Shown: piece by piece, positions 25,505-44,630 of the stretch | How the letters are laid out: each line of letters opens with the position of its first letter | Position numbering within the stretch: the stretch's first letter is position 1 | Origin: an uncultured Gemmatimonadales bacterium | GTDB lineage: Bacteria; Gemmatimonadota; Gemmatimonadetes; Gemmatimonadales; GWC2-71-9 | Length of the DNA: 64,000 nt | Direction: 5' to 3' | Assembly (NCBI GenBank): GCA_963697435.1 | Contig: CAVOOB010000002.1 | Location: 516,601-580,600, forward strand | Made by a program: the position numbers and the translations under genes | The notes under the pieces: generated by a model | Told to the model about the DNA's origin: nothing | Databases searched by the model: none | What the model saw: only the letters and a program-made list of their open reading frames with translations

Positions 25505-25984
25505 CTACGCCGCGGCCGGGTCGGCGAGCGAGGCCACGTCGGCAGCGCCGGTGAAGGTCAACGATTCCGAGTTCACGCAATAGCGGAGCCCGCTCGGACG
25601 CGGCCCGTCCTCGAAGACATGACCGAGGTGGGCGTCGCACCGTGCGCACAGGATCTCGACCCGGCGCATGCCGTAGGAGCGGTCCTCCTCCGTGGTCACG
25701 TTTTCGTCGGCGATCGGCCGAAAAAAACTGGGCCAGCCGGTGCCCGAATGGAACTTGTGGTCCGACACGAACAACGGCAGCCCGCAACAGAGGCAGGTGT
25801 ACACACCCGCCCGCTTGTTGTCGAGCAGGGTGCCGCAGTGGGGCGCTTCGGTGCCCTTGCCACGGGCAATGCGGTATTGCTCCCTGGTGAGTTGGGCCTG
25901 CCACGCGGCGTCGCTCTTCTCGACGCGCGGCGTCTCTACCGGCCCGACCAGCTGGCCCTCGCGATTGAACACCCTTGCGCGCAT
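25505..25984 (-). CDS. msrB: Peptide-methionine (R)-S-oxide reductase
   Basis: Two CxxC zinc pairs (CLCCGLPLF, CARCDAHLGHVF) and catalytic RYCVNS. Start trimmed to ATG at 25984. Confidence 0.9.
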   Translation of the reverse strand: MRARVFNREGQLVGPVETPRVEKSDAAWQAQLTREQYRIARGKGTEAPHCGTLLDNKRAGVYTCLCCGLPLFVSDHKFHSGTGWPSFFRPIADENVTTEEDRSYGMRRVEILCARCDAHLGHVFEDGPRPSGLRYCVNSESLTFTGAADVASLADPAAA

Positions 25985-25995
25985 CGAGTGCGCGC

Positions 25996-26523
25996 CTACT
26001 CGAACGCCGAGGGGAGGGGATTGCTGGGTCGCTCCGAGTCCCAGAAGACCGAGAGGATCCACCACCGGCTCCCGTCCCAGAACAACTGGATGGAGTTGAT
26101 CCCGCGGGCAAACGGCGCCGTCTCACCGCGGCGCAGGCTCTCGTACGAGCTGAAGGCATGGGCGATGGCTCCATAGCGCTCCGTGCTTCGCTTCAACTCC
26201 CGCTCGGTGAACCCGATGGCGACCAGGAATGAGTCTGCACGCGTTTGATACTGCGCGGGCGTCATGATACGGAGCCCGCACTTTCCGGCGGTATCACATC
26301 CGGTGGGCACCAGGCGGGCCTCGGGGTGCATCAGCGAGTGAAAGCGGTCCCACTGCCGTGGCTGGCCGACCGGTCCGCTGATGACGGCGTAGAGGGTGGT
26401 GATGATGCTGTCGATGGAGCCGACATCGGCTGGACGGGCCGCCGGCCGGTCCTGGGCAGTGCTGGATGCAACGCCGGCGGTGCACACGAGTGCGAGCAGG
26501 AGCGTCGGGAGGCGGCAGGGCAT
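25996..26523 (-). CDS. Hypothetical secreted protein (possibly NTF2/SnoaL-like fold)
   Basis: Signal peptide MPCRLPTLLLALVCTAGVASSTAQ. Start trimmed to ATG at 26523. The fold assignment is a guess. Confidence 0.55.
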   Translation of the reverse strand: MPCRLPTLLLALVCTAGVASSTAQDRPAARPADVGSIDSIITTLYAVISGPVGQPRQWDRFHSLMHPEARLVPTGCDTAGKCGLRIMTPAQYQTRADSFLVAIGFTERELKRSTERYGAIAHAFSSYESLRRGETAPFARGINSIQLFWDGSRWWILSVFWDSERPSNPLPSAFE

Positions 26524-26524
26524 G

Positions 26525-26899
26525 TCAGTCCTTTCCTCTTCGGGGCGGCGGGTCCATCGACTGGCGATCCCAGTGCAGCGTATGAAAGAGGCGGTGCAGC
26601 ACAGGCGCGAGGAGGAGGCCGGCCGCGACGATGAACACGAGTCCGGCAAACAGTGCGTACATGCCGGCGAACAGCTTGCCGGTATCGGTCTGCGGCGCGT
26701 TGACCGGTCCCATGCCGCCCAGCAACATCGCCGCGTTCAGGAAGGCGTCGCGCCAGGCGAGTTCTTCGAACTGAATGTAGCCCAGCATCCCGATGGCCAC
26801 TGAGATCCCGACCAGGGCGAGCGTCACTGCCAGGTGTCGTCCCAGGCGCTGAATAAACGCCCTCATGGGCAGCGGGCGATCCCTTCGTGATTCGTACAT
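26525..26899 (-). CDS. Small 2-TM membrane protein with K+-channel-like pore loop but non-canonical filter
   Basis: TM1 - WRDAFLNAAMLLGGMGPVNAPQTDTGKLFAGMYALFAGL - TM2 aligns by eye to the pore helix/filter/inner helix pattern DAxYFxxxTxTTVGYGDxxPxTxxGKxF. TTVGYGD is replaced by LLGGMGP. Confidence 0.55.
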   Translation of the reverse strand: MYESRRDRPLPMRAFIQRLGRHLAVTLALVGISVAIGMLGYIQFEELAWRDAFLNAAMLLGGMGPVNAPQTDTGKLFAGMYALFAGLVFIVAAGLLLAPVLHRLFHTLHWDRQSMDPPPRRGKD

Positions 26900-26971
26900 C
26901 TGTCCTTCCCATCGGTCCGACGGTTGCAGCGCAGGTGCCGCGCCATCAGGGCAACGCCGTCGCTCTCCCGG

Positions 26972-27283
26972 TCAAGTCGATGACACGTCGTGCCAGAAGG
27001 AAATCTCCGGCGGGCCGGCGAAAATGGTCGCGGCGCTCTGGATGAACGCCTGGATGTGCGGGGTCTGCATGTGCGGGCCGGTGTAGGCGGCTTGGGAGGT
27101 CCAGCGTTCGTACAGCAGGAACTGGGTGTCGTCCGCCGCGTCCTGCAGGGTGGTGATCTCAAGGCAGTCAGGTTCCCTGGCGAGCACCGTCCGGATCAGG
27201 GGGGCCAGCGCCGCCCGTGCGGCGGCACCCTTGCCGGGTTGTGCGCGGTACCTGATGACGACCGTGACGGGGGTGGCGGGCAT
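26972..27283 (-). CDS. ABM (antibiotic biosynthesis monooxygenase-like) domain protein
   Basis: About 103-aa ferredoxin-like alpha+beta pattern (VTVVIRYRAQPGK...FLLYERWTSQAAYTGPHMQTPHIQAF). Start trimmed to ATG at 27283. Lies 23 nt downstream of the flavoprotein gene. Confidence 0.7.
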   Translation of the reverse strand: MPATPVTVVIRYRAQPGKGAAARAALAPLIRTVLAREPDCLEITTLQDAADDTQFLLYERWTSQAAYTGPHMQTPHIQAFIQSAATIFAGPPEISFWHDVSST

Positions 27284-27306
27284 GGAGACTCCGGGCGACG
27301 GGGTGA

Positions 27307-28674
27307 TCAACGAATATCCCCCGCCCTTGGCGAATGCGCCAGCGCCAGGCGCGCCTCTTCGCCCGCGGCCGCGGTCAGGTCCTGGTCGCCCATGGCCACG
27401 CCGACCTTCTTCAGGAACGCGTTGGGCGGTTCGCCACCGGCGAATACCCACATCCAGTCGTTCGGTAGTTCGGTCACAGTGCCGCCGACGGAGATCAACA
27501 CCGACTGCTCGCGCACTTCCGTCGGCTGGGATTCGAAGAGCACGCGGAGCTTCTTCCCTTTCACGGCCTCCTGCAGCTTCCTGGCGTTCCGCTCCTTGAT
27601 CCGGCTGAACTCCGCCTTCCGATAGGAGAGGGTCACCTGGTTCCCCTTCTGATACGCCAGGCCGAGCGCAGCCTCCACCGCACTGTCGCCCCCGCCGACC
27701 ACGAGAATCTTCGAATCGACGTAGGCGTCCGCCTCGATCAGGCTGTACATCACCTTGGGCAGTTCCTCTCCCGGGATGTTCAGCTTTCTCGGCGTCCCAC
27801 GGCGGCCGAGGGCCAGGACGACATGCCGGGTCCGGTAGGTGCCGCCCGTGCTCGTGATGCGGAACGTCGCGTCAGCTTCCCGGTCGATCGACTGCACCTT
27901 TTCGCCAGTGCGAATCTCAAGTCCCGCCTCCTTGATCACGGCACTCCAGAATTCAAGCAGCTCCTCCTTGGAAATTTCGAGCTTCTTGAATTTGCCGTGG
28001 AGCGGGAACTCCACCGGACTCGTCATCACCAGCTTTTGCCTGGGATACTTGGCCACCGTCCCCCCGACCGCTTCCTGCTCGAGGGTCACGTAGGTGAGCG
28101 CCCGTTCCACGGCGCGCAGCGACGCGCTCAGCCCACCGGGGCCCGCGCCGACGATGCACACGTCGCGGACGTCGGGCGCGCTGGGTTGTGAGGCGACCCG
28201 GCGGGCGATCGTGTCCATGCATTCGCGGCCCTGGTTCACCGCGTTCTTGATCAGCGCCAGCCCGCCGAGCTCGCCGATGATGAACAGGCCGGGGATGTTG
28301 CTCTCGAATTCCCGCGAGAGCCGCGGCATGTCGGCGCTGATGCTCGGGTTGGCCATCACGATCTCGATGGCGCCGACCGGGCAGACCTCGGCGCAGAGCC
28401 CATGGCCGATGCACTTGTGCCCGTTGATGATGGCGGCCTTGCCCGCGATCACGGCCAGGACATTCCCTTCCGGGCAGACGTCGATACAGGCGCCGCAGCC
28501 GATGCAGTGCGACACGTCGATGTGCGGATGCTGCGCCCGCGGTCCGCTCGAATGAAGCTTGCCGCGTTCGGCGGCGGCCAGCGCCGCCTGCTCCCGGCGG
28601 TGGGTCTTCCGGATGTGGAGGACCAGCGGGCCGATGAGGAAGAGGCCAAAGACGACGTAAATCAGCAGGTCCAT
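27307..28674 (-). CDS. Membrane-anchored 2x[4Fe-4S] ferredoxin domain fused to FAD/NAD(P)-binding pyridine-nucleotide-disulfide-oxidoreductase-like domain
   Basis: N-terminal TM (MDLLIYVVFGLFLIGPLVLHI) followed by RKTHRRE (positive-inside). CIGCGACIDVCP and CIGHGLCAEVCP clusters. Dinucleotide folds VCIVGAGPGGLSAS and ILVVGGGDSAVEAAL. ATG at 28674 is preferred over the TTG at 28716 used by the track. Confidence 0.85.
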   Translation of the reverse strand: MDLLIYVVFGLFLIGPLVLHIRKTHRREQAALAAAERGKLHSSGPRAQHPHIDVSHCIGCGACIDVCPEGNVLAVIAGKAAIINGHKCIGHGLCAEVCPVGAIEIVMANPSISADMPRLSREFESNIPGLFIIGELGGLALIKNAVNQGRECMDTIARRVASQPSAPDVRDVCIVGAGPGGLSASLRAVERALTYVTLEQEAVGGTVAKYPRQKLVMTSPVEFPLHGKFKKLEISKEELLEFWSAVIKEAGLEIRTGEKVQSIDREADATFRITSTGGTYRTRHVVLALGRRGTPRKLNIPGEELPKVMYSLIEADAYVDSKILVVGGGDSAVEAALGLAYQKGNQVTLSYRKAEFSRIKERNARKLQEAVKGKKLRVLFESQPTEVREQSVLISVGGTVTELPNDWMWVFAGGEPPNAFLKKVGVAMGDQDLTAAAGEEARLALAHSPRAGDIR

Positions 28675-28919
28675 TGTCACTCGGAAGTGTGGGTCGATCG
28701 GCGATGCAGGGTGCAAGTGGGACGGGCAGACTGCACGTGAGGCGCGTCACGCTCGGCCGACGGATGGTCCGGCGGCGCCCGAGTCGATGCACCGTTTGCG
28801 CCTTTCCTCCGGCCGAGCTCGGCCGGGAACAGCGGCGGGGGACCCGGCCAGCCCCCGCGGTACCGCATTCCGCGTTTCGCGACTGAAACATGCCGATCCA
28901 TCCGTAACGAATCGTTGCA

Positions 28920-29045
28920 CCACGAGAGGGCGTCCAATCCAACGTATATGAGTTAACATGTTGTTGTACAACTATTTACGCTACTTCTTCATGATTTGCT
29001 CATTCGGGTAGGAACCTTGCTGAATATGGGTCCGTATTCCTACGG
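28920..29045. promoter_or_regulatory. AT-rich island with clustered palindromes in the divergent intergenic region (candidate promoters/operator)
   Basis: The only markedly AT-rich stretch for many kb. GTTAAC (28952-57), AACATGTT (28955-62), perfect 10-bp palindrome GTTGTACAAC (28963-72), TCATGA and ATGA-N5-TCAT (about 28989-29003). It lies between divergent starts at 28674 and 29069. Confidence 0.45.
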
Positions 29046-29068
29046 CCATCCAGTCACGGACCCACCGC

Positions 29069-30115
29069 ATGACCCCCCACCAGATGGGGGGCGGGGGCGC
29101 GTCGGCTGGCACCCACTCGACCGAAAGCTCGATGTCCACTTCGAATTTGGCTCCCGCCCCTCGCGTTGCTGCCCTGACCGAACGCCCCGTCGCGCCATCG
29201 GCGCCCGTACGCGCACATGTCCCCCGGCGCCCAGTGCCGAAGGCGAAGCGGTCGAAGGCGATGACCGCCGCCCTCGTCTTCGGCGCGGGGCTGGTGGCGT
29301 TGAATCTATTCGGAATGCGGTACTACCTGCTGCCTCGCGCCGAGCAGGTTCGCGACCCGCTCCATGCCTGGCTGCGTCCCTCAGGGTACCTCGGGCAGAC
29401 GGCGGGCGTCCTCGCGCTCCTGATCTTTCTCTTCCTCTGGTTGTACCCGCTTCGGAAGAAGTTCCGGTGGCTCGCCTTCACCGGCGCCATCTCCAAGTGG
29501 CTGAACGTACACGTGCTGGCCGCGCTCGGCCTCCCCCTCCTGGTGGCGGCGCACGCGACCTGGCAGTTCGGGGGGGTCATCGGCCTTGGATTCTGGTCGA
29601 TGATGCTGGTCTGGTTGAGCGGCATCGTCGGTCGATACATCTACGCCAGGATTCCGCGGGGCCAGGCCGGCGTCGAGCTCACGATCGATGAGATCAGCAC
29701 CCAGCGGCAGGAGCTGCTGAACGAGATCGCCGAGCTGTCGGGACTCGAGGCCAAGGAAGTCGAGGCGGTGCTGGCGCCTGACACGGCGCCGACGGTGGGC
29801 CTTGGGTTGTGGCAGACCATGCGCCGGATGGTTGCCGACGACCTCGGTCGGCGACGCGCGGCCGCTCGCCTGCGCCGCCAGATCAAGTTGCGCCGCCCGA
29901 TGCAACGGCGCAGCGACGCCGCAGTGCTGAAGGAAGTCCTTCGCCTCGCCAACCGTGAAATGGCCATGGTACAGCAGGCTCGCATGCTCGGCGCCACGCA
30001 GAACATCCTCCGGTTCTGGCATGTGGCCCACCGCCCTCTGGCGGTGACGGCGCTGGTGGCGGTCATCATCCACGTCATGGTGGTCGTGTCGTTGGGCGCC
30101 ACGTGGTTCCGGTAG
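29069..30115 (+). CDS. Polytopic membrane protein with two H-x13-H pairs in TM helices (candidate di-haem b-type transmembrane electron carrier)
   Basis: About 5 TM. H148-x13-H162 (NVHVLAALGLPLLVAAH) and H321-x13-H335 (HRPLAVTALVAVIIH). A roughly 120-aa charged helical cytoplasmic insert sits between TM4 and TM5. The start is uncertain (ATG 29069, 29132 or 29261). The 3' end overlaps the next gene. Confidence 0.7.
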   Translation: MTPHQMGGGGASAGTHSTESSMSTSNLAPAPRVAALTERPVAPSAPVRAHVPRRPVPKAKRSKAMTAALVFGAGLVALNLFGMRYYLLPRAEQVRDPLHAWLRPSGYLGQTAGVLALLIFLFLWLYPLRKKFRWLAFTGAISKWLNVHVLAALGLPLLVAAHATWQFGGVIGLGFWSMMLVWLSGIVGRYIYARIPRGQAGVELTIDEISTQRQELLNEIAELSGLEAKEVEAVLAPDTAPTVGLGLWQTMRRMVADDLGRRRAAARLRRQIKLRRPMQRRSDAAVLKEVLRLANREMAMVQQARMLGATQNILRFWHVAHRPLAVTALVAVIIHVMVVVSLGATWFR

Positions 30116-32157
30116 GCGAGGGCACGACCGGTGTGTTCCGCGGACTCGTTCGCGCATGCCTCCTGGCCCTCGGCTGGGTGGTGCTGATGTCCACGCCGCT
30201 GGCGGGACAGATCTCGCCGGGCCCGCTCGCAGCCGCGCACGCGACGCTCGAGGGACCGACCCAGTGCACCACCTGCCACGGCAGCCGGCGGGACGCCATG
30301 ACCGGCCAGTGCGCGGCCTGTCACAAGGATATTGGCCGATTGCTCGACCAGGGGCGGGGCTACCACGGCAGCGCCGAAGTGAAGGGCACACCCTGCGCCT
30401 CCTGTCATCCGGATCACGCCGGGAAAGGCTTCGAGATGGTGGAATGGCCGGATGGCGGCATGAAGAGCTTCGACCACAAACGCGCTGGGTGGGCGCTTGC
30501 GTTGAAGCACGCCGAGGCCACGTGCGCGGATTGTCACACCGACGAGTTCCAGGTGCCGGGAGTGAGGGATCTCTCCGTTCGAACGACCGGGCAGGGCTAT
30601 ACCGGTCTGGACCCCACCTGTACCAGTTGCCACGAGGACATCCATCGCGGGGCGCTCAAGCAGAACTGCACGGTATGCCACGATGCCGGTTCGTGGTCCG
30701 TCACCCCGGGGTTCGACCACGACACGACGGCGTATGCGCTCACTGCCAGGCACGCCGATGTGAAGTGCGACGACTGTCACCTCGACGCTCGGCTCTCACC
30801 CCGGAGCGACGGGAAGGGGCACCTGATCCCCGTGTACAAGCCGGTGTCGTTCGAGTCCTGCGCCAGCTGCCACACCGACCCGCACAGTGGGGGGCTGGGC
30901 CCGAAGTGCGCCGACTGCCATAGCACGCGCGGGTTCCAGGTCATCGACAAGAACCGGTTCGACCATGACAGAACCAAGTATCCGCTGCGCGGCAAGCACG
31001 TGACCACGGCCTGCGCCAGGTGCCACAAGGACTTCTCGACGCCGGCCCTGAAGACGCCGAAGTTCGCCACTTGCGTCGAGTGCCACACGGACGCCCACAA
31101 CGGGACCGCCACTCTCGCCGGCAGGCGGGTCGATTGCGCCTCGTGCCACTCGGTCAACGGATTCGCCCTGTCGACGTATACGACCGCGAGCCATGCCACG
31201 ACCCCGTACCCGCTTGAGGGCAAGCACCTGACGGTGAAGTGCGCCGCCTGCCATAGCCGGAGCACCGCGACGACTGCCGCGAAGACGCTCGGCAGTGCCA
31301 GGGTCGTGATACGGCCGAAGTACGCACAGTGCACGGACTGCCATGCTGACGATCATGGCGGCCAACGAATGGCGAGCACCAACAAGGGCGAGTGCGCCGC
31401 CTGCCACCGTGTGACAGGGTGGACTCCGAGCACCTTCGACAGTGCCGCACACGCACAGACGAATCTGGCCCTCGATGGTCGCCACCAGGAGATCGCCTGC
31501 GTGGCCTGTCACGGCCTCGCGCGCGCCGAGCTCCCGCCGATGACCGGGACGGCGACGATCGGCAAGGCTGGATTCCGGTTCCGGATTACCGAGACGGAGT
31601 GCGCCGCCTGCCACACCGATCCGCACCGTGGCCGATTCTCCGACGGGGGCTCCGGGGTCACGCCAATGGGTTGCCCCGCCTGCCATGGCATGCGGGCCTT
31701 CCGGCCGTCGACCACCGACATCGCGGCACACGCCCGATTCGAGTTTCCACTGGAGGGTGCGCACCGTGCCACCCCCTGCTCAGCCTGTCACGACGAACTG
31801 ACGCGCCCTGCCTCCGCCGCCCGGTCCACGCTGGTCCGGGGCTCGGGCGGGTTTGCCGACCTCCGGTTCGAGGCAACGCGGGAATGCGCCGCTTGCCACG
31901 AGACGCCGCACGGCGATCAGTTCGCCGCCTGGGACGCCCGGGGAGGCTGCGCCGCTTGCCACACGGTGGCCGCCTTCGTCCCGGCGGCCAACTTCGATCA
32001 CGACACCGACGCCTCGTTTTCGACCAGGGGCGCCCACGAACGGGTGCCGTGTGCGCGGTGCCATGTGCGTGATGCGGCCGCCCTACCCACGGAACCGTTG
32101 CGCTATCGCCCGTTGTCGGGGCGCTGCGAGGCCTGCCACGGCAAGGAGTCACCATGA
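30103..32157 (+). CDS. Secreted multihaem cytochrome c with 23 CXXCH motifs
   Basis: I counted 23 CXXCH in the translation. Signal peptide (ACLLALGWVVLMSTPLAGQ), no lipobox. Six recognisable three-haem modules CxxCHxDxHxG ... CxxCH ... FDH..T.y.L.G.H....CxxCH. The start is GTG at 30103 or GTG at 30133. Confidence 0.9.
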   Translation: MVPVGEGTTGVFRGLVRACLLALGWVVLMSTPLAGQISPGPLAAAHATLEGPTQCTTCHGSRRDAMTGQCAACHKDIGRLLDQGRGYHGSAEVKGTPCASCHPDHAGKGFEMVEWPDGGMKSFDHKRAGWALALKHAEATCADCHTDEFQVPGVRDLSVRTTGQGYTGLDPTCTSCHEDIHRGALKQNCTVCHDAGSWSVTPGFDHDTTAYALTARHADVKCDDCHLDARLSPRSDGKGHLIPVYKPVSFESCASCHTDPHSGGLGPKCADCHSTRGFQVIDKNRFDHDRTKYPLRGKHVTTACARCHKDFSTPALKTPKFATCVECHTDAHNGTATLAGRRVDCASCHSVNGFALSTYTTASHATTPYPLEGKHLTVKCAACHSRSTATTAAKTLGSARVVIRPKYAQCTDCHADDHGGQRMASTNKGECAACHRVTGWTPSTFDSAAHAQTNLALDGRHQEIACVACHGLARAELPPMTGTATIGKAGFRFRITETECAACHTDPHRGRFSDGGSGVTPMGCPACHGMRAFRPSTTDIAAHARFEFPLEGAHRATPCSACHDELTRPASAARSTLVRGSGGFADLRFEATRECAACHETPHGDQFAAWDARGGCAACHTVAAFVPAANFDHDTDASFSTRGAHERVPCARCHVRDAAALPTEPLRYRPLSGRCEACHGKESP

Positions 32158-33902
32158 GACGCCTGATCTGGCTTCCACTCCTGGCGCTGTCGCTCGCGTT
32201 GGTCGCGGGCGACCTCGCCGCGCAGGAACGGACCACCTCACCGCACGGCGACCTCCAGACCCAGTGCACGGTCTGCCACGGGCCGGATAGCTGGACGGCG
32301 CTTCAGATCAGCAGCCAGTTCGATCACGGGAAACTCGGCTTCCCGTTGACCGGCGCGCACGGCGCGACCACGTGCCGGGCATGTCATACCTCGCTGGACT
32401 TCAAGCTGGCGAGCTCGGACTGCACCGTGTGTCACAGCGACAACCATCGTGGCGAGTTGGGCCCGAACTGTGCCCGGTGTCACACGACGCGCACCTTTGT
32501 CGACCGGGACCTCATGGTTCCGGCGCATCGGTTGACGCGCTTCCCCCTGTCCGGCGGCCACCTGGCGGTCGAGTGCACGCAGTGCCATGCACCGGGCGTT
32601 GGTGGGCAGATGCAGTTCGTAGGGACCTCCACGGCGTGCTTCTCCTGTCACCAGCCCGATTACAACGCTGCGGCGAATCACGTCACGTCGAGCTTCCCCA
32701 CGAGCTGTGAGGGGTGCCACTCGACGGTGGCCTGGAACGCGGCAAACCTCGGGGCGGGGAACCACCCGACGTCGCCCATCGCCCTCACCGGCGTGCACAG
32801 CAGCAACCTGGTGACCTGCGCCCAGTGCCATACGTCGCAGCCCTACACCGCGGTCGCGCGCACCTGTGACGGTTGCCACCACCAGGAGTACCTGTCCACC
32901 AGCGATCCGAACCACGCCGCCTCGGGGTTCTCGACCGACTGTGTGTCGTGTCACCAGCCGGTCGCCAACTGGGCCGGTGCCAAGTTCAATCACCCCTCGG
33001 CGCCGATCGCCCTGACGGGTCCCCACAGCGTCAACCTGGTGGAGTGCACGCAGTGCCACACCAGCCAGCCGTACTCCTCGGTGAGGCAGACCTGCGACGG
33101 CTGCCACCATGCGGAGTACGTGGCCACGACCGACCCGAGCCATGTCGCGGCGGGATACAGCACCGACTGCGCTTCCTGCCACCAGGTCGTCGCCAACTGG
33201 GTGGGTGCCACGGCCAACCACCCGACCACCCCGATCGCGCTCACGGGCGTGCATAGCGCCAACCTCATCCCGTGCACGCAGTGTCATACCACCTCACCCT
33301 ATTCAACGGTGAAGCAGACCTGTGACGGCTGCCACCACGCAGAGTACGTGGCCACTACCGACCCAAATCACGTCTCGGCAGGGTATGGCATCGACTGCGC
33401 CTCCTGCCACCAGCCGGTGGCGAACTGGGCAGGGGCGAACGCCAACCATCCCACCACACCGATCGCGCTGACGGGCGTGCACAGCGCCACTATGGTCACG
33501 TGCACCCAGTGCCACACGACTTCCCCGTACTCGAGCGTGCAGCGCACCTGCGACGGATGCCATCATCCCGAATACGTGCAGCCGACCGACCCCAACCACG
33601 TCATGGCCAACTTCTCGACCACCTGCACGGCCTGCCATGGGTTGGTAGCGAACTGGGCAGGGGCGAAGTTCACCGCGCACGATGGGAGCGTGTCGCAGTT
33701 CCGGATCTACAGCGGCAAGCATAACAACCGGTGGAGCAACTGCGCGGAGTGCCACGCTGCCGGACAGTCGTATGCCGCCACGCCGGCGTTGCTCTGCCTG
33801 AATTGCCACGCGAAAGTCCAGACGGACAAGCACCGCGGGAAGAACTACACGCCCAGCGACTGCGTGCGGTCGGGCTGCCACGCGAACGGATCCAACCCGT
33901 GA
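32154..33902 (+). CDS. Secreted multihaem cytochrome c with 21 CXXCH plus one C-terminal CX4CH motif
   Basis: ATGA overlap with the upstream cytochrome gene. Signal peptide MRRLIWLPLLALSLALVAGDLAAQ, no lipobox. 21 CXXCH counted, plus CVRSGCH near the C-terminus. Recurrent CDGCHH. Confidence 0.9.
   Translation: MRRLIWLPLLALSLALVAGDLAAQERTTSPHGDLQTQCTVCHGPDSWTALQISSQFDHGKLGFPLTGAHGATTCRACHTSLDFKLASSDCTVCHSDNHRGELGPNCARCHTTRTFVDRDLMVPAHRLTRFPLSGGHLAVECTQCHAPGVGGQMQFVGTSTACFSCHQPDYNAAANHVTSSFPTSCEGCHSTVAWNAANLGAGNHPTSPIALTGVHSSNLVTCAQCHTSQPYTAVARTCDGCHHQEYLSTSDPNHAASGFSTDCVSCHQPVANWAGAKFNHPSAPIALTGPHSVNLVECTQCHTSQPYSSVRQTCDGCHHAEYVATTDPSHVAAGYSTDCASCHQVVANWVGATANHPTTPIALTGVHSANLIPCTQCHTTSPYSTVKQTCDGCHHAEYVATTDPNHVSAGYGIDCASCHQPVANWAGANANHPTTPIALTGVHSATMVTCTQCHTTSPYSSVQRTCDGCHHPEYVQPTDPNHVMANFSTTCTACHGLVANWAGAKFTAHDGSVSQFRIYSGKHNNRWSNCAECHAAGQSYAATPALLCLNCHAKVQTDKHRGKNYTPSDCVRSGCHANGSNP
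32760..33671 (+). repeat. Four in-frame tandem repeats of 228 bp (76 aa, three CXXCH each) inside the second cytochrome gene
   Basis: Units start at 32760, 32988, 33216 and 33444, each beginning NHP(T/S)xPIALTG.HS...C(A/T)QCHT..PY....(R/Q)TCDGCHH.EY....DP.H......(T/I)(D/T)C.(S/A)CH..VANW.GA. A degenerate half unit precedes them (CFSCHQPDYNAAANH...CEGCH). Confidence 0.9.
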
Positions 33903-35944
33903 GCCCACGCGCGAGGCGCCTGACAGGGCTGCTCGGAATGGCATTGCTGGCGGCGTGCACCGCCGGCGAGGCCCGCGCCCAGGACTCGACCGAGGTGGTC
34001 GCGCTCTACATGAAGGAAGGGGCGGTTATCCGCGGGCGTATCCTCGCGGACAACGGCCCGAACGGTATTCGGATCCGGAGCCAGCAGTCGGGCGCGACGT
34101 TCGTGGTTGCGGCCGCGCAGATCGACAGCGTGGTACGGCCCAAAGCGTCCGTATCGCCATCGACGCCCGTGCCCGAGCCGATGGTACCTGCCTCGCAAGC
34201 ACTGGACACTCCGGCACCACCTCCGAGTCCTGCGGCGGCCACCGCGGTGGACACCGCACCCATGACGATCGATGTGGCCTCGCCGACCACAGTTATGGAA
34301 GGACTCGCGCCGCCACCCAGTGCGGTGCCGGCGCAAGACATGATCGCGCCAGTCGTCATCGACACCGCCCCGCCCGACACGGCCGCGCACCGGACGACCG
34401 TCACTTTCATGTCCGGCGCCGAGATCTACATCGGGGCCGGCCGGCTTGACGGGTTGCTGGAGGGCTCGGAGGTCTCGGTCATGCAGGGAGACGACGTCGT
34501 CGGGATACTGCGTGTGAAATACGTCGCCTCCCACCGCTCCGCGTGCGAGGTTGTGTCGGGGGCGACCGGAATCGCGCTGGGGGATGTGATTCAGTTTCGC
34601 CGGCAGATGGCGTCCCCCGAAATGCTCTCCGCGTCGTCGATGTCCGGGCCGCCCCGCCCGCGGCGGATGAGCGGGCCCGGGCTCCACGGCCGGTTCGGGA
34701 CCCGATACCTGCGAGCGACCACGACGACGATGGCCGGCGGACAGGAACTGGGAAGCAACGGCTTCGACCAGCCCTCGCTCGACGCCCGCATCAACGGCAT
34801 CGGCCTCGGCGGCACACCGCTCGGGGTGGCGCTCGATCTGCGGACCCGTCAGACGACCACGACCTCGGCTGGCCGCACGGAGGTGGATGGACATACGCGG
34901 GTTTATCAGGCCGTCATGTACTGGAATCAGCCTGGCGCAGGCTTCCGCGCGGCCGCGGGCCGGCAGTACCTGACGGCGGTCAGTTCCATCGGCCTTCTGG
35001 ACGGCGCGTTGCTCGAGTTGAATGGGGGAAGAGTGTCGGTCGGTGCGTTCGCCGGATTCGAGCCTGACATCGCCACACTCGGGTTCTCCAGCACGGTCCA
35101 CGACTTCGGCCTCTACGCGAGCGTGCACAACCGGCCAGGGACGTCGACGGTGACGTCGGCGACCATTGGTGCCGTCGGGTCCTATGAAGGAGGAGATGCG
35201 CGCCGGGAGTGGGGCATCGCGCAGTTCAACATGAACAACCGGTACGTCTCGCTCTACCTGCTGCAGGAGCTCGATTATTACCGGCCGTGGAAACTCGCGG
35301 GGCCGAACGCCGAGGAAAGCGCCATTTCGGCGACGAGCCAGTTTGCGAACCTCTCCTTCCGGGCGACCCGCTGGCTGGCGATCAATGGTACCTATGACAA
35401 ACGCCGCAGCGTGCCGACCCTTCGCGACTTCACCAATCCGGAGACCGAATTCGATGACACCTACCGCCAGGGCTACGGAGGTGGTGTGCAGGTGACCGGC
35501 CGACAGGTGTACGGCGGTGGCGACTGGCGGCGGAGCACCGGTGGAAGTTCGGGCGGCGCCAATTCCTTCACCACGACCCTCGGCGTCAATCGCATCACCA
35601 AGTTCAACGTCGGACTGTCGGCCCGGGCGACCTGGTACCAGAATGATGTCTTCTCCGTCGACACCACCGCCGCGGTGCTGCAGACCTCCGGGCAACTCTA
35701 CTCCGGGCGGATGAGCCTCGACCCCTTCGGACCGATTCATCTTGATCTGAGCGCGGGCCTCCGCCAGGAGGACAACCCGATCGCGCTGGGGCTGCAGAAG
35801 TCGACCTGGTACGGCGTTGACATGGATCTGAACGTCGGGCGCGCCTGGTTCATCTCAGTCTCAGCGCTCCGACAGAACGATACTGCCAACCCCGGGACCA
35901 GCACCCTGACGCAGATCTACGGCGGGGTGACCTGGCGGTTCTAG
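33899..35944 (+). CDS. Putative outer-membrane beta-barrel protein with N-terminal domain and Pro/Ala-rich linker
   Basis: GTG at 33899 overlaps the cytochrome stop (GTGA). Signal sequence with possible lipobox LAAC or SPase I site ARA-QD. Pro/Ala-rich segment about aa 80-165. The C-terminal roughly 430 aa show alternating hydrophobic/polar strand pattern with Gly/Tyr/Asn-rich turns, ending ...IYGGVTWRF (terminal aromatic). Confidence 0.75.
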   Translation: MSPRARRLTGLLGMALLAACTAGEARAQDSTEVVALYMKEGAVIRGRILADNGPNGIRIRSQQSGATFVVAAAQIDSVVRPKASVSPSTPVPEPMVPASQALDTPAPPPSPAAATAVDTAPMTIDVASPTTVMEGLAPPPSAVPAQDMIAPVVIDTAPPDTAAHRTTVTFMSGAEIYIGAGRLDGLLEGSEVSVMQGDDVVGILRVKYVASHRSACEVVSGATGIALGDVIQFRRQMASPEMLSASSMSGPPRPRRMSGPGLHGRFGTRYLRATTTTMAGGQELGSNGFDQPSLDARINGIGLGGTPLGVALDLRTRQTTTTSAGRTEVDGHTRVYQAVMYWNQPGAGFRAAAGRQYLTAVSSIGLLDGALLELNGGRVSVGAFAGFEPDIATLGFSSTVHDFGLYASVHNRPGTSTVTSATIGAVGSYEGGDARREWGIAQFNMNNRYVSLYLLQELDYYRPWKLAGPNAEESAISATSQFANLSFRATRWLAINGTYDKRRSVPTLRDFTNPETEFDDTYRQGYGGGVQVTGRQVYGGGDWRRSTGGSSGGANSFTTTLGVNRITKFNVGLSARATWYQNDVFSVDTTAAVLQTSGQLYSGRMSLDPFGPIHLDLSAGLRQEDNPIALGLQKSTWYGVDMDLNVGRAWFISVSALRQNDTANPGTSTLTQIYGGVTWRF

Positions 35945-39051: not shown

Positions 39052-40881
39052 TCAACGAGGCCCGAGCACCTCCAGCACCACCGGCACCCGGCCAAGCGGG
39101 GCGGCGATCTGCACACCCTGCACCCGCGGGCGGACCGCTTCCAGCATCTCGCGGGCAATCTGCACCCCCTCCGCAAGCCCCGCCTCCCGGCCGGCTGCGC
39201 TCGCGACCCGCATCCGCTCAAGGACAGCCTGCGGCACCGACACGCCGGGCACCTCGTTGGCCAGGAACTCGGCGTTCCTGAGCGACACGAGCGGCCAGAG
39301 TCCCGCGATGACCGGAACGGCGTGTGTGGACGCGCGGTCCAGAAACCGGTCCAGCTGCTCGAGGTCGAACACCGGCTGGGTGACGACGTACTCGGCGCCT
39401 GCGTCCACTTTCCACGCCAGCCGAGACATTTCCCGCTCGAAATCGGGGGCGGTGGGGTTGGCGCCCACGCCGATCACGAACTTGGTCGGCGCGCCGATGG
39501 CGTTGCCGCCCGGGTCGAGGCCCTGGTTGAGGCGGGAGACGAGGTTGGTCAGCCCGATCGCGTCGATGTCGAACACGGCGGTCGCGTCGGGGTAGGGCCC
39601 CATCTTCGGCGGGTCGCCGGTGATGATGAGGAGATTGCGGAGCCCGGCCGCCGCCGCGCCGAGCAGGTCGGAAAGCATGCCCAGGAGATTGCGATCGCGG
39701 CAGGCGTAGTGGACGACCGCCTCGAGCCCGACCTCCCGCTCGATCAGGAGGCCCGAAATGAGGGCGCCCATGCGGCTCTGGGCGCGAGGGCCGTCGGGCA
39801 CGTTGACGGCGTCCACGCCGGCGGCCTTCAGTGCGCGCACCTGCGCGTACATCGGTGCCGGATCGACCCCCTTGGGTGGGACGATTTCCACGGTAGTGAC
39901 GAACGCGCCGGCGGCCAGCTTGGCTCCCAGTTTCGAGCGCTCACCGAGGGGGAGGGCAGGGACGCCTTGCGCGGCGGCTGGCGCAACCGTCGTGTGGTGG
40001 TGGCGGGGCGACGCGCTCTGTGCAAACCCGACGATGGCCTTGATGTGCTCGGGCGTGGTGCCGCAACACCCGCCGACGATGCGTGCCCCCGCCTCGACCA
40101 TGCGCTTCGCGTAGGTCGCCATGTACTCTGGCGACGCCATGTACATCTTCCTGCCCCCGACGTCGCGCGGGAGGCCGGCGTTGGGCATGGCGCTGAGCGG
40201 GAGGTCGACGACCCGCGCCAGGTGCTCAATGGCCTCGAGGACTCCGTGGGGGCCGACCGAACAATTTACCCCGATGACATCGACTCCCATCGCGGCAATC
40301 GCAGGCCCAAACGCGGAGGGCGCCGTCCCGTAGAGTGTGCGTCCGTCCTCACCGACGGTCATCTGGGCGATGATCGGCAGGTCGGAGAGGGCGCGGACGC
40401 CGCTGACGGCGGCGCGAAGTTCTTCGACGTCGCTGAAGGTCTCCAGGAGAAAGCCGTCCACCCCGCCGGCCAGGAGGCCGGTGGCCTGCCGCGCGAACGC
40501 CGCCTGCGCTTCTTCCACCGAGGTTTCGCCGAACGGTTCGATGCGGATGCCGAGTGGGCCGATGGCGCCGAGCACGCAGGCGCGATCGCCGGCGGCCTCC
40601 CGGGCGAGCCTGGCCGCCGCTTCGTTGATGGTCTCGGTGTCGTCGGCGAGCCCGTGGTGCGCCAGCTTGATCGGGTTCGCGCCAAAGGTGTTGGTCTCGA
40701 TCAGTTCGGCCCCGGCCCGCACATACTCGCGGTGAATCTCCCGGATGACATCGGGCTGCCGGAGCACCAGTTCATCGTAGCAGACGTTGAGGAAGACACC
40801 CTTGCTGTAGAGCATCGTCCCCATGGCGCCGTCGGAGACGTGCACGTGGCCGTCGGCGAGCAGTTGGCGCAGGTCAGGCAT
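39052..40881 (-). CDS. Bifunctional homocysteine S-methyltransferase / 5,10-methylenetetrahydrofolate reductase (YitJ-like)
   Basis: N-terminal Hcy-binding domain (DGAMGTML..., [19 protein letters not shown]). C-terminal MTHFR TIM barrel (VEIVPPKG, NVPDGPRA, ITGDPP). Confidence 0.85.
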   Translation of the reverse strand: MPDLRQLLADGHVHVSDGAMGTMLYSKGVFLNVCYDELVLRQPDVIREIHREYVRAGAELIETNTFGANPIKLAHHGLADDTETINEAAARLAREAAGDRACVLGAIGPLGIRIEPFGETSVEEAQAAFARQATGLLAGGVDGFLLETFSDVEELRAAVSGVRALSDLPIIAQMTVGEDGRTLYGTAPSAFGPAIAAMGVDVIGVNCSVGPHGVLEAIEHLARVVDLPLSAMPNAGLPRDVGGRKMYMASPEYMATYAKRMVEAGARIVGGCCGTTPEHIKAIVGFAQSASPRHHHTTVAPAAAQGVPALPLGERSKLGAKLAAGAFVTTVEIVPPKGVDPAPMYAQVRALKAAGVDAVNVPDGPRAQSRMGALISGLLIEREVGLEAVVHYACRDRNLLGMLSDLLGAAAAGLRNLLIITGDPPKMGPYPDATAVFDIDAIGLTNLVSRLNQGLDPGGNAIGAPTKFVIGVGANPTAPDFEREMSRLAWKVDAGAEYVVTQPVFDLEQLDRFLDRASTHAVPVIAGLWPLVSLRNAEFLANEVPGVSVPQAVLERMRVASAAGREAGLAEGVQIAREMLEAVRPRVQGVQIAAPLGRVPVVLEVLGPR

Positions 40882-40901: not shown

Positions 40902-44630
<3,729 letters not shown>

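Follow-up and report, generated by a model that had tools for sequence, protein, structure and literature searches.

Porin-cytochrome systems and a locus in the Gemmatimonadales

PCC3 is a porin-cytochrome gene cluster type in which a porin is combined with two cytochromes, one labelled 'extracellular' (median, 34 haems) and one 'periplasmic' (median, 21 haems), and with an inner-membrane protein (IMP) of ∼300 amino acids (aa). It was defined together with a further type, PCC4, and the IMPs have five transmembrane (TM) helices, an SGXXG motif on TM4, and WX3HX13H motifs on both TM3 and TM5, and were likened to ferric reductase domain (FRD) and NADPH oxidase (NOX) proteins (He et al. 2017; PMC5566968). 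Reports of PCC3 are confined to the Alpha-, Beta-, and Gammaproteobacteria, where it was described as having four genes and was given a quinone-linked model; the defining study mentions neither FAD nor a flavoprotein (PMC5566968). The locus described here, at positions 27307 to 35944 of a window (the whole stretch of DNA analyzed, 64 kb at 68% GC) on contig CAVOOB010000002.1 of an uncultured Gemmatimonadales bacterium, has the same four types of parts and, as a conserved fifth member, a flavoprotein gene. Its features are as follows.

27307–28716, minus strand: membrane-anchored flavoprotein open reading frame (ORF) with iron-sulfur (FeS), FAD, and NAD(P)H motifs; probable true start ATG 28674, giving 455 aa
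28717–29068, no strand: divergent AT-rich control region with conserved non-coding blocks
29069–30115, plus strand: IMP, 348 aa, five TM helices, predicted di-haem b protein
30103–32157, plus strand: cytA, secreted 23-haem cytochrome c; alternative start at 30133
32154–33902, plus strand: cytB, secreted cytochrome c with 21 CXXCH motifs and one CX4CH
32862–33602, plus strand: 228-bp tandem repeat array within cytB (Tandem Repeats Finder)
33899–35944, plus strand: outer-membrane barrel protein, 681 aa

The coordinates and gene types of the four plus-strand genes and the divergent flavoprotein gene agree with those of a preliminary description of this DNA, and the junctions reported there, ATGA at 32154 and GTGA at 33899, are both present. 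The reported overlap at 30103–30115 hinges on which cytA start is used; an independent gene call begins cytA at GTG 30133 (674 aa), which is preceded by GGCGAGGG, and leaves a 17-nt gap instead. Homologues of the window proteins are nearly all from Gemmatimonadales metagenome-assembled genomes (MAGs).

On balance, and with moderate confidence, we favor reading the locus as a self-contained, PCC3-type trans-envelope conduit of five components that takes its electrons from the cytoplasm and not from the quinone pool. The reading is built on gene content, motifs, predicted topology, the fold of the barrel, and conserved synteny. The preliminary description had also proposed a trans-envelope conduit, which is supported as far as sequence analysis reaches, but its further suggestion of a possibly undescribed architecture was overstated and holds only in part.

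Comparison with described systems

The locus corresponds to PCC3 in every motif-level and architectural criterion, the match to reference PCC3 being by published description only. The IMP falls in the ∼300-aa class, with five TM helices, SGXXG, and two WX3HX13H motifs, and the barrel protein is the counterpart of the porin, with a signal peptide, a 22-strand model (Foldseek probability 1.0), and a TWRF terminus; the PCC3 porin of L. cholodnii is likewise predicted to have 22 strands. The two cytochromes contain haem-bearing repeats and have 29.7 (cytA) and 26.5 (cytB, counted with 22 haems) aa per haem, compared with 22 to 39 in PCC3. 'Periplasmic' PCC3 cytochromes of the Gallionellaceae have 21, 24, or 27 haems (PMC10734462), rising in steps of three as cytB does here, although the PSORTb-based 'periplasmic' and 'extracellular' labels of PCC3 may correspond differently to cytA and cytB. 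The roughly doubled haem load, the lack of CymA, ImcH, or CbcL, and the FRD-like IMP, three of the four differences that had been put forward as signs of novelty, are already defining features of PCC3 and PCC4 (PMC5566968). As far as we found, it is only the NAD(P)H-FeS-flavoprotein partner that had not previously been linked to the PCC3 architecture. The hosts identified differ as well: they belong to the Gemmatimonadota, Acidobacteriota, and Bacteroidota, and one locus each is labelled Eisenbacteria and Krumholzibacteriia. Since the PCC3 homologues that He et al. detected were all proteobacterial, the present family is suggested to be at least distant from reference PCC3.

The IMP of PCC4 shares the five-TM, HX13H, and SGXXG signature with the window IMP, and in PCC4 subgroup II a gene for an Fe-S protein (PF13247) lies just upstream of the IMP gene, together with other redox genes. 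In PCC4, however, the cytochromes are three small periplasmic ones with 4, 5, and 10 haems, and a large repeat cytochrome is lacking; nor has a TrxR-type flavoprotein been described for this cluster, and its IMPs have no sequence similarity to those of PCC3.

With MtrCAB, MtoAB, and PioAB the locus shares a cytochrome gene directly upstream of a barrel gene, multihaem bis-His wires, and a PF22113 match. The MtrB/PioB barrel has 26 strands and the window barrel has 22, and neither MtrB_PioB (PF11854) nor TIGR03509 matches the window barrel or 36 members of its family even at an E value of ≤1; the window protein has no barrel Pfam match at all. There is no decahaem MtrA/DmsE protein (with TIGR03508, cytB scores 17.2 against a cutoff of 192.2 and cytA has no hit), and neither a lipoprotein of the MtrC/OmcA kind nor a CymA-type quinol dehydrogenase is present at the locus. 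No NCBIfam or Pfam model of the Geobacter Pcc (OmbB-OmaB-OmcB) or Ext systems matched the locus proteins.

Eukaryotic NOX and FRE enzymes pass electrons from NAD(P)H to a flavin, then along two transmembrane b-haems, whose His ligands are paired at a spacing of 13 residues on two helices, and finally to an acceptor on the far side of the membrane, and the locus would follow the same logic; in the bacterial two-component Fre-MsrQ system, as at the locus, the flavin reductase stands apart as its own protein. Like FRD (PF01794) and NOX proteins, the window IMP has two TM helices that each bear a predicted haem-ligating pair of His residues spaced by ∼13, but it has five TM helices and not a six-TM core, and a separate TrxR/YpdA-type dehydrogenase in place of a fused FNR-type FAD/NADPH domain. 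This dehydrogenase has its own TM anchor and a fused ferredoxin domain, unlike either the FNR-type domain or soluble Fre, and whereas the acceptors of NOX, FRE, and Fre-MsrQ are O2, an Fe(III) chelate, or MsrP, the acceptor at the locus would be a chain of ∼45 c-haems. Dedicated inner-membrane entry modules for extracellular electron transfer (EET) include the flavin-based system of Listeria (Ndh2-EetA/B-PplA) and ImcH and CbcL of Geobacter. These route electrons via the quinone pool, whereas no quinone-reactive component is evident at the locus, where an FeS flavoprotein, docking on a di-haem b protein, is the proposed donor.

No published description of the five-gene module was found. The peat EET1 to EET4 clusters of Acidobacteriota and Verrucomicrobiota (bioRxiv 10.64898/2026.05.27.727921) were considered as a prior description and judged to be different, the modelled representative cytochromes having 8 to 13 haems; the nearest prior remark is that ferredoxin-NADP reductase genes lie near some porin-cytochrome clusters (PMC13264449). 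What appears to be new is the conserved FeS-FAD-NAD(P)H flavoprotein and the occurrence of the module in Gemmatimonadota, Acidobacteriota, and Bacteroidota.

A membrane-anchored FeS flavoprotein

The flavoprotein matches the Pfam families Pyr_redox_3 (148 bits) and Fer4 (4Fe-4S ferredoxin) and is organized with an N-terminal TM helix, a ferredoxin domain, and a TrxR/YpdA-type FAD and NAD(P)H domain. Its nearest solved relatives are YpdA/Bdr, TrxR, and TrxR-type ferredoxin-NADP reductases; it scores below the equivalog cutoffs for YpdA (TIGR04018, 177 versus 339.9) and TrxR (TIGR01292, 77.6 versus 343), and has no redox-active CxxC disulfide outside the ferredoxin motifs. The single TM anchor (residues 3–21) is followed by a positive patch, RKTHRRE, and the FeS and flavin domains are therefore expected to face the cytoplasm.

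The protein had been described as carrying two [4Fe-4S] clusters, which is only approximately right. The first motif is a regular CxxCxxCxxxCP, but the second, at ∼28380–28420 (residues C88–P99 of the 455-aa form), is CxxHxxCxxxCP, with a His replacing the second Cys. This variant is common to six of seven cross-phylum orthologues, the other (locus L087) having Ile at the His position, and the Emticicia orthologue is without the second Cys of the first motif as well (CIGSGAC). The second site may hold a [3Fe-4S] or a His-ligated cluster and could be the exit site. Orthologues encoded beside the IMP gene in other phyla are 41 to 48% identical, and the predicted FeS, FAD, and NAD(P)H motifs are largely kept: six of the seven FeS-motif Cys residues, GAGPxG, GGGDSAxE, and Y351-R352...R358 are invariant.

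Conservation and distribution of the module

A scan with one genome per species yielded 125 genomes with an IMP relative, of which the best 80 loci were studied; nearly all of these 80 are from Gemmatimonadales MAGs and none are from cultured strains. Among the loci of sufficient length, 43 of 45 have all five genes in the arrangement of the window; in L020 the opposite strand carries cytB and the barrel gene, and L034 has an apparent fusion of cytA and cytB, described below. In 73 Gemmatimonadales loci the flavoprotein gene is divergent, and in 5 it shares the strand of the IMP gene and cytA and lies between them.

Beyond the order, six loci of the wider family (L081 to L083 and L085 to L087) all carry an IMP, a Fer4 plus Pyr_redox_3 flavoprotein, and large cytochromes in varying gene orders; L081 is from an Acidobacteriia MAG, and the L086 flavoprotein gene call is without the Fer4 part. 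A tblastn search of plasmids located the module on pEMTOL02 (∼100 kb) of Emticicia oligotrophica DSM 17448 (Bacteroidota; L084, NC_018749.1, 78197–89995), in the order ccsA, IMP, flavoprotein, 23-haem cytA orthologue, 40-haem cytB orthologue, and barrel homologue. On the Emticicia plasmid and in these six loci the flavoprotein gene adjoins the IMP gene or lies close to it, with four different gene orders represented. The IMP, both cytochromes, the barrel, and the flavoprotein are thus linked both within the Gemmatimonadales and across phyla despite the shuffled order, and no homologous cluster lies inside a nitrite, hydroxylamine, or sulfite pathway, contexts that the preliminary description had named as ones that would speak against a conduit.

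The ccsA gene on pEMTOL02 codes for a 1,028-aa cytochrome-c biogenesis protein and is directly ahead of the module, and ccm genes flank the module in L087; because these dedicated cytochrome-c maturation genes accompany it, the module can be regarded as a portable unit. The plasmid copy behind ccsA suggests that it is horizontally mobile and self-sufficient. In the literature searched, no paper linking Emticicia with multihaem cytochromes was found.

The IMP family as a whole has 2457 representative clusters at an E value of ≤1e-3 (profile search of 1.84 billion representatives), and a metagenome scan gave at least 586 confirmed stretches. The 33 metagenome loci of at least 12 kb were judged for gene content and, among the matches listed, the flavoprotein is present in 31, cytA in 32, cytB in 31, and a detectable barrel in 24.

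The inner-membrane protein

The IMP has five hydrophobic segments, oriented N-in/C-out by the positive-inside rule, with a cytoplasmic helical loop of ∼128 aa between TM4 and TM5. TM3 carries W144-x3-H148-x13-H162, TM4 carries S184-G-I-V-G188, and TM5 carries W317-x3-H321-x13-H335. The two H-x13-H pairs of the preliminary description correspond to H148/H162 and H321/H335, all four of which are invariant in 35 homologues, as are H318, W144, W317, and S184-G185...G188; the motif signature is also seen in Emticicia and in distant relatives. Topology prediction places H148 and H321 toward the cytoplasm and H162 and H335 toward the periplasm on two parallel helices, and with one His pair near each membrane face two stacked bis-His b-haems would be expected.

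When 40 distant relatives were scanned singly, all matches were sub-threshold, but the same families recurred, with DUF4405 in 28, Ferric_reduct in 20 (best E value, 1.5e-4), and Ni_hydr_CYTB in 13. The motifs and these recurrent profiles back the proposed di-haem-b, ferric-reductase-like nature of the IMP, although the PF01794 threshold is missed. A remote kinship with di-haem cytochromes b and ferric reductases is plausible, with membership in these families not established. When the IMP, cytA, and cytB were searched against PDB sequences by profile and by sequence, coiled-coil noise or nothing was returned.

A fixed-length and a variable-length cytochrome

The haem motif counts of the preliminary description, 23 CXXCH in cytA and 21 CXXCH plus one CX4CH (CVRSGCH) in cytB, are correct. 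Both cytochromes match the Pfam Cytochrome_C7, c3, and MtrC-domain II/IV profiles, and PF22113 (MtrC/MtrF domain II/IV) hits them with 64 and 43 bits, respectively, over a cutoff of 30. There are 47 His residues for 23 haems in cytA and 48 for 22 in cytB; with about two His per haem, scarce Met, and no CXXCK, the haems are therefore expected to be bis-His transfer haems and not catalytic ones. Both proteins have Sec-type signal peptides, and neither has a lipobox, as had been noted: the cytB signal peptide has no Cys, and the Cys of cytA is at the start of the h-region following an Arg.

CytB opens with a head of 7 haems, continues with four tri-haem repeats of 76 aa, and closes with a short tail, with motif spacings of 36, 16, 16, 35, 21, and 23 in the head, (37/35, 16, 25) four times in the repeats, and 39 and 18 in the tail; the tri-haem modules are encoded by the 228-bp tandem array (3.2 copies, 75% matches). 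CytB orthologues with complete ORFs range from 8 to 51 CXXCH, and those whose spacings were read retain both head and tail but differ in the number of tri-haem units. The longest is in L064 (14127–18368, labelled Candidatus Eisenbacteria), with 51 CXXCH and ∼14 tri-haem repeats. In contrast, cytA orthologues nearly always have either 23 or 20 haems: among complete ORFs in the Gemmatimonadales there are 48 examples with 23 and 13 with 20, and there are 23 in the Acidobacteriia MAG, L082, and Emticicia, and 20 or 23 in metagenome loci. CytA is thus the fixed-length member, with 23 or 20 haems, and cytB is variable through gain or loss of a 76-residue tri-haem repeat.

In most of the cross-phylum loci read gene by gene, cytB is directly upstream of the barrel gene; in L083 a gene for a 9-haem protein is in between, and the split locus L082 has the IMP gene and cytA together and cytB, the barrel gene, and the flavoprotein gene together. 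On the basis of the fixed and variable haem counts and these gene adjacencies, cytA probably acts in the periplasm and cytB at the outer membrane or exterior.

Other multihaem arrangements occur in related loci. In L034 (10642–14625), cytA and cytB are apparently fused into one ORF with 36 CXXCH and 2 CX3-4CH. A second set of three plus-strand multihaem ORFs, absent from the window, is upstream of the flavoprotein gene in L029, L033, L035, L036, and L040 (at ∼1–8 kb), with 7 to 8 CXXCH and one or two CX3-4CH in the first, 18+2 in the second, and 14 to 16 CXXCH in the third; L034 has a similar set, the third ORF of which has 7 CXXCH.

The outer-membrane barrel

The barrel protein has a signal peptide, a small beta domain (residues ∼34–79), a Pro-rich disordered linker (83–156), a second, conserved small beta domain (163–234) that is FlgT_C-like in 7 of 36 relatives, and the barrel proper (263–680). 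The C-terminal barrel with an aromatic end that had been surmised from the sequence is borne out by prediction: residues 263–680, the last ∼420, model as 22 strands (AlphaFold2, mean pLDDT 71.8), and the TWRF terminus is conserved in the family. A Foldseek search of the model against the PDB gave 182 hits at an E value of ≤1e-3, the top ones, PapC/FimD ushers and general porins, being solved outer-membrane barrels matched with a probability of 1.0; a soluble or differently located protein, which would have spoken against a conduit, is not what is predicted. An N-terminal 'LLAAC' was considered as a lipobox and rejected, its Cys not being conserved. Barrel homologues in the cross-phylum clusters have 21 to 28% identity (24 to 28% in L081 to L083), and L085 and L086 have an unannotated gene for 556 to 611 aa at that position.

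Between the barrel and IMP genes, three of these loci have an additional conserved gene (L081, 9198–10004; L085, 9138–10004; L086, 9237–10004) of ∼255 to 288 aa that matches no Pfam family, and the L081 copy has a signal-peptide-like N-terminus. This gene is not present as a separate gene in the Gemmatimonadales, whose barrels often carry an extra N-terminal beta domain and a Pro-rich linker.

Proposed path of electrons and alternative explanations

In the mechanism outlined here we infer each cofactor, protein-protein contact, the direction of flow, and the acceptor. NAD(P)H would be oxidized at the cytoplasmic face by the membrane-anchored flavoprotein, with electrons passing from FAD to two FeS clusters, and these electrons would cross the inner membrane via two stacked b-haems, one on the cytoplasmic side (H148/H321) and one on the periplasmic side (H162/H335). 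The fixed-length 23-haem cytA would then span the periplasm, and the variable-length cytB, in or on the 22-strand barrel, would deliver electrons to extracellular acceptors such as Fe(III) or Mn(IV) minerals, humics, or possibly O2. In its logic the system would resemble a split NADPH oxidase or ferric reductase to which a wire of ∼45 c-haems has been added. Conservation of the flavoprotein together with the IMP implies such a quinone-independent, NOX-like entry. Because outward flow from NAD(P)H would, by established bioenergetics, be electrogenic in a dissipative sense, lowering membrane potential and not building it, the role is likely to be redox balancing, electron disposal, or reductive metal mobilization and not that of a coupling site.

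Several observations weigh against this proposal. The window IMP has no Pfam or NCBIfam match (PF01794 included, at an E value of ≤0.01), its AlphaFold2 model is moderate (pLDDT 74), and a Foldseek search of the model against the PDB gave nothing below an E value of 1, nor is there a PDB sequence relative; the predicted binding of haem b therefore rests on motifs and sub-threshold profiles. Support of the Rosetta-stone kind is absent: three apparent IMP-flavoprotein fusions (P0269, P0257, and P0374) contain frameshift-like out-of-frame or chimeric stretches and are gene-call artefacts of the same-strand arrangement. The cytochromes have no lipobox and there is no linked secretion system, which leaves the exposure of cytB at the surface a prediction. 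For such IMPs a coupling to quinones was put forward by He et al. (PMC5566968), and the window IMP may have a quinone site. The PCC3 genes of Sideroxydans are not induced by Fe(II) (PMC8788666), and PCC3 itself is defined bioinformatically and functionally unverified (PMC5566968; PMC10734462).

The alternative that survives best is the quinone-linked conduit of the He et al. 2017 model, in which the IMP would be a quinol oxidase or quinone reductase linking the quinone pool to the cytochromes, and the flavoprotein would be an auxiliary or alternative donor or would serve some other reaction at that site in the membrane. The IMP motifs equal those of the PCC3 and PCC4 IMPs for which quinone coupling was proposed, the weak Ni_hydr_CYTB matches in the distant relatives are to quinone-reactive cytochromes b, and the described proteobacterial PCC3 clusters carry no flavoprotein. 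However, no quinone-site motif was identified in the IMP, and the fact that, whatever the phylum or gene order, almost all loci examined have both the flavoprotein and the IMP is hard to square with a dispensable accessory, so we regard this explanation as unlikely, while giving it real weight.

Electrons could also flow inward, with extracellular Fe(II) or Mn(II), a cathode, or a partner cell as the donor, as has been hypothesized for PCC3 in iron oxidizers. PCC3 is known from Fe(II) and Mn(II) oxidizers, and Mtr-type conduits are reversible (PMC10734462), but with an NAD(P)-linked cytoplasmic end flow from donors at the level of Fe(II) would be strongly uphill and against the membrane potential, and is by established bioenergetics energetically implausible. 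Most of the hosts are moreover heterotroph-like MAGs from soil and wastewater, the genes flanking the locus in the window are housekeeping ones, and PCC3 in Sideroxydans was not induced by Fe(II) (PMC8788666), making uptake improbable. Least probable of all is a periplasm-confined system in which the cytochromes are an electron store or a reductase for a periplasmic or envelope substrate, as in Fre-MsrQ-MsrP-like oxidant detoxification or repair, and the barrel serves export or anchoring, for although neither cytochrome has a lipid anchor or linked secretion system, msrB is nearby in the window and in several close relatives, and high haem density fits a capacitor role (PMC7399161), the barrel gene is beside cytB across phyla in the typical porin-cytochrome pair arrangement, msrB is absent from distant loci, and there is no catalytic haem signature.

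The divergent control region

The AT-rich nature of the intergenic region that had been remarked upon is evident, with 28900–29068 having 48% GC and the lowest 80-mer 36%, compared to 68% for the window. Non-coding blocks are kept across an alignment of 11 related loci. A sigma54-like −24/−12 element, GGGTAGGAACCTTGCT, is at 29006–29023, ∼60 nt upstream of the IMP gene (also given as GGGTAGGAaCCTTGCT, GG-N10-GC), followed by a conserved block, TCCGTATTCCTACGG, at 29031–29045; a conserved near-palindrome, GTAACGAATCGTTGCAC, is at 28904–28920, ∼100 nt further upstream than the sigma54-like element. GG-N10-GC is present upstream of the gene for the IMP in 19 of the 80 loci, all in the closest clade (L001 to L013, L017, L018, L021, L027, and L030 among them). 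There is no sigma70 promoter above chance in the intergenic region, no Rfam match, and terminators are at chance level. An RNA structure formed from the inverted repeat GTAGGAA...TTCCTAC after the −12 element was considered and has one compensatory change, yet is broken in L009 and L012 and is not claimed. Genes for sigma54-activator response regulators adjoin the module in L081, L083, and L085, accompanied by CHASE2 sensor and FecR genes in L081 and L085; none was found among the ten flanking genes scanned in the window.

Flanking genes

Three minus-strand genes are near the flavoprotein gene.

25505–26065, minus strand: MsrB
26331–26912, minus strand: unannotated 193-aa ORF
26972–27451, minus strand: ORF for an ABM-domain protein (Pfam ABM, 62 bits); probable start ATG 27283, giving ∼103 aa

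The divergent flavoprotein gene with an ABM gene downstream is as the preliminary description had it, but the ABM gene is restricted to the closest relatives (10 of the 80 loci) and the ABM-domain protein is an accessory neighbor outside the conserved core. The msrB and S13 peptidase genes also accompany the cluster in the closest relatives only. The unannotated 193-aa ORF, like the MsrB and ABM genes on either side, is next to the flavoprotein gene only in the window and its closest relatives. The MsrB neighborhood recalls the Fre-MsrQ-MsrP repair system and is not kept in distant loci.

The flanking genes, which code for MetH, a homocysteine-methyltransferase/MTHFR fusion, acyl-CoA dehydrogenase, S13 peptidase, MsrB, and M42 peptidase, are housekeeping genes and point to no pathway. 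The fused homocysteine S-methyltransferase/MTHFR-domain gene (39052–40881, minus strand) adjoins a full-length B12-dependent metH (40902–44630, minus strand) and has no relation to the conduit. Apart from cytA and cytB there are no further multihaem ORFs in the window, and no quinol-dehydrogenase-type cytochrome was found there.

Implications

PCC3-type clusters have been recognized since 2017 yet are functionally orphan, and the flavoprotein offers a concrete, testable mechanism for entry that would bypass the quinones. Generalized to the family, the module could tentatively be viewed as a portable five-protein 'split NOX' that wires NAD(P)H to the exterior without quinones, using a 20- or 23-haem periplasmic ruler and a tri-haem extracellular extension of evolvable length, and that is widespread in abundant phyla of soil and water. 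The fixed 20- or 23-haem and the modular 8- to 51-haem cytochromes constitute a natural experiment on how the length of a haem wire is set, and the plasmid-borne copy in cultured Emticicia makes genetics and biochemistry feasible. If true, the split-NOX reading would define a new class of inner-membrane entry to EET and would hint at the role of the orphan PCC3 and PCC4 membrane proteins, and the module would place extracellular redox chemistry, involving Fe, Mn, or humic substances and possibly O2 reduction, in the Gemmatimonadota, Acidobacteriota, and Bacteroidota.

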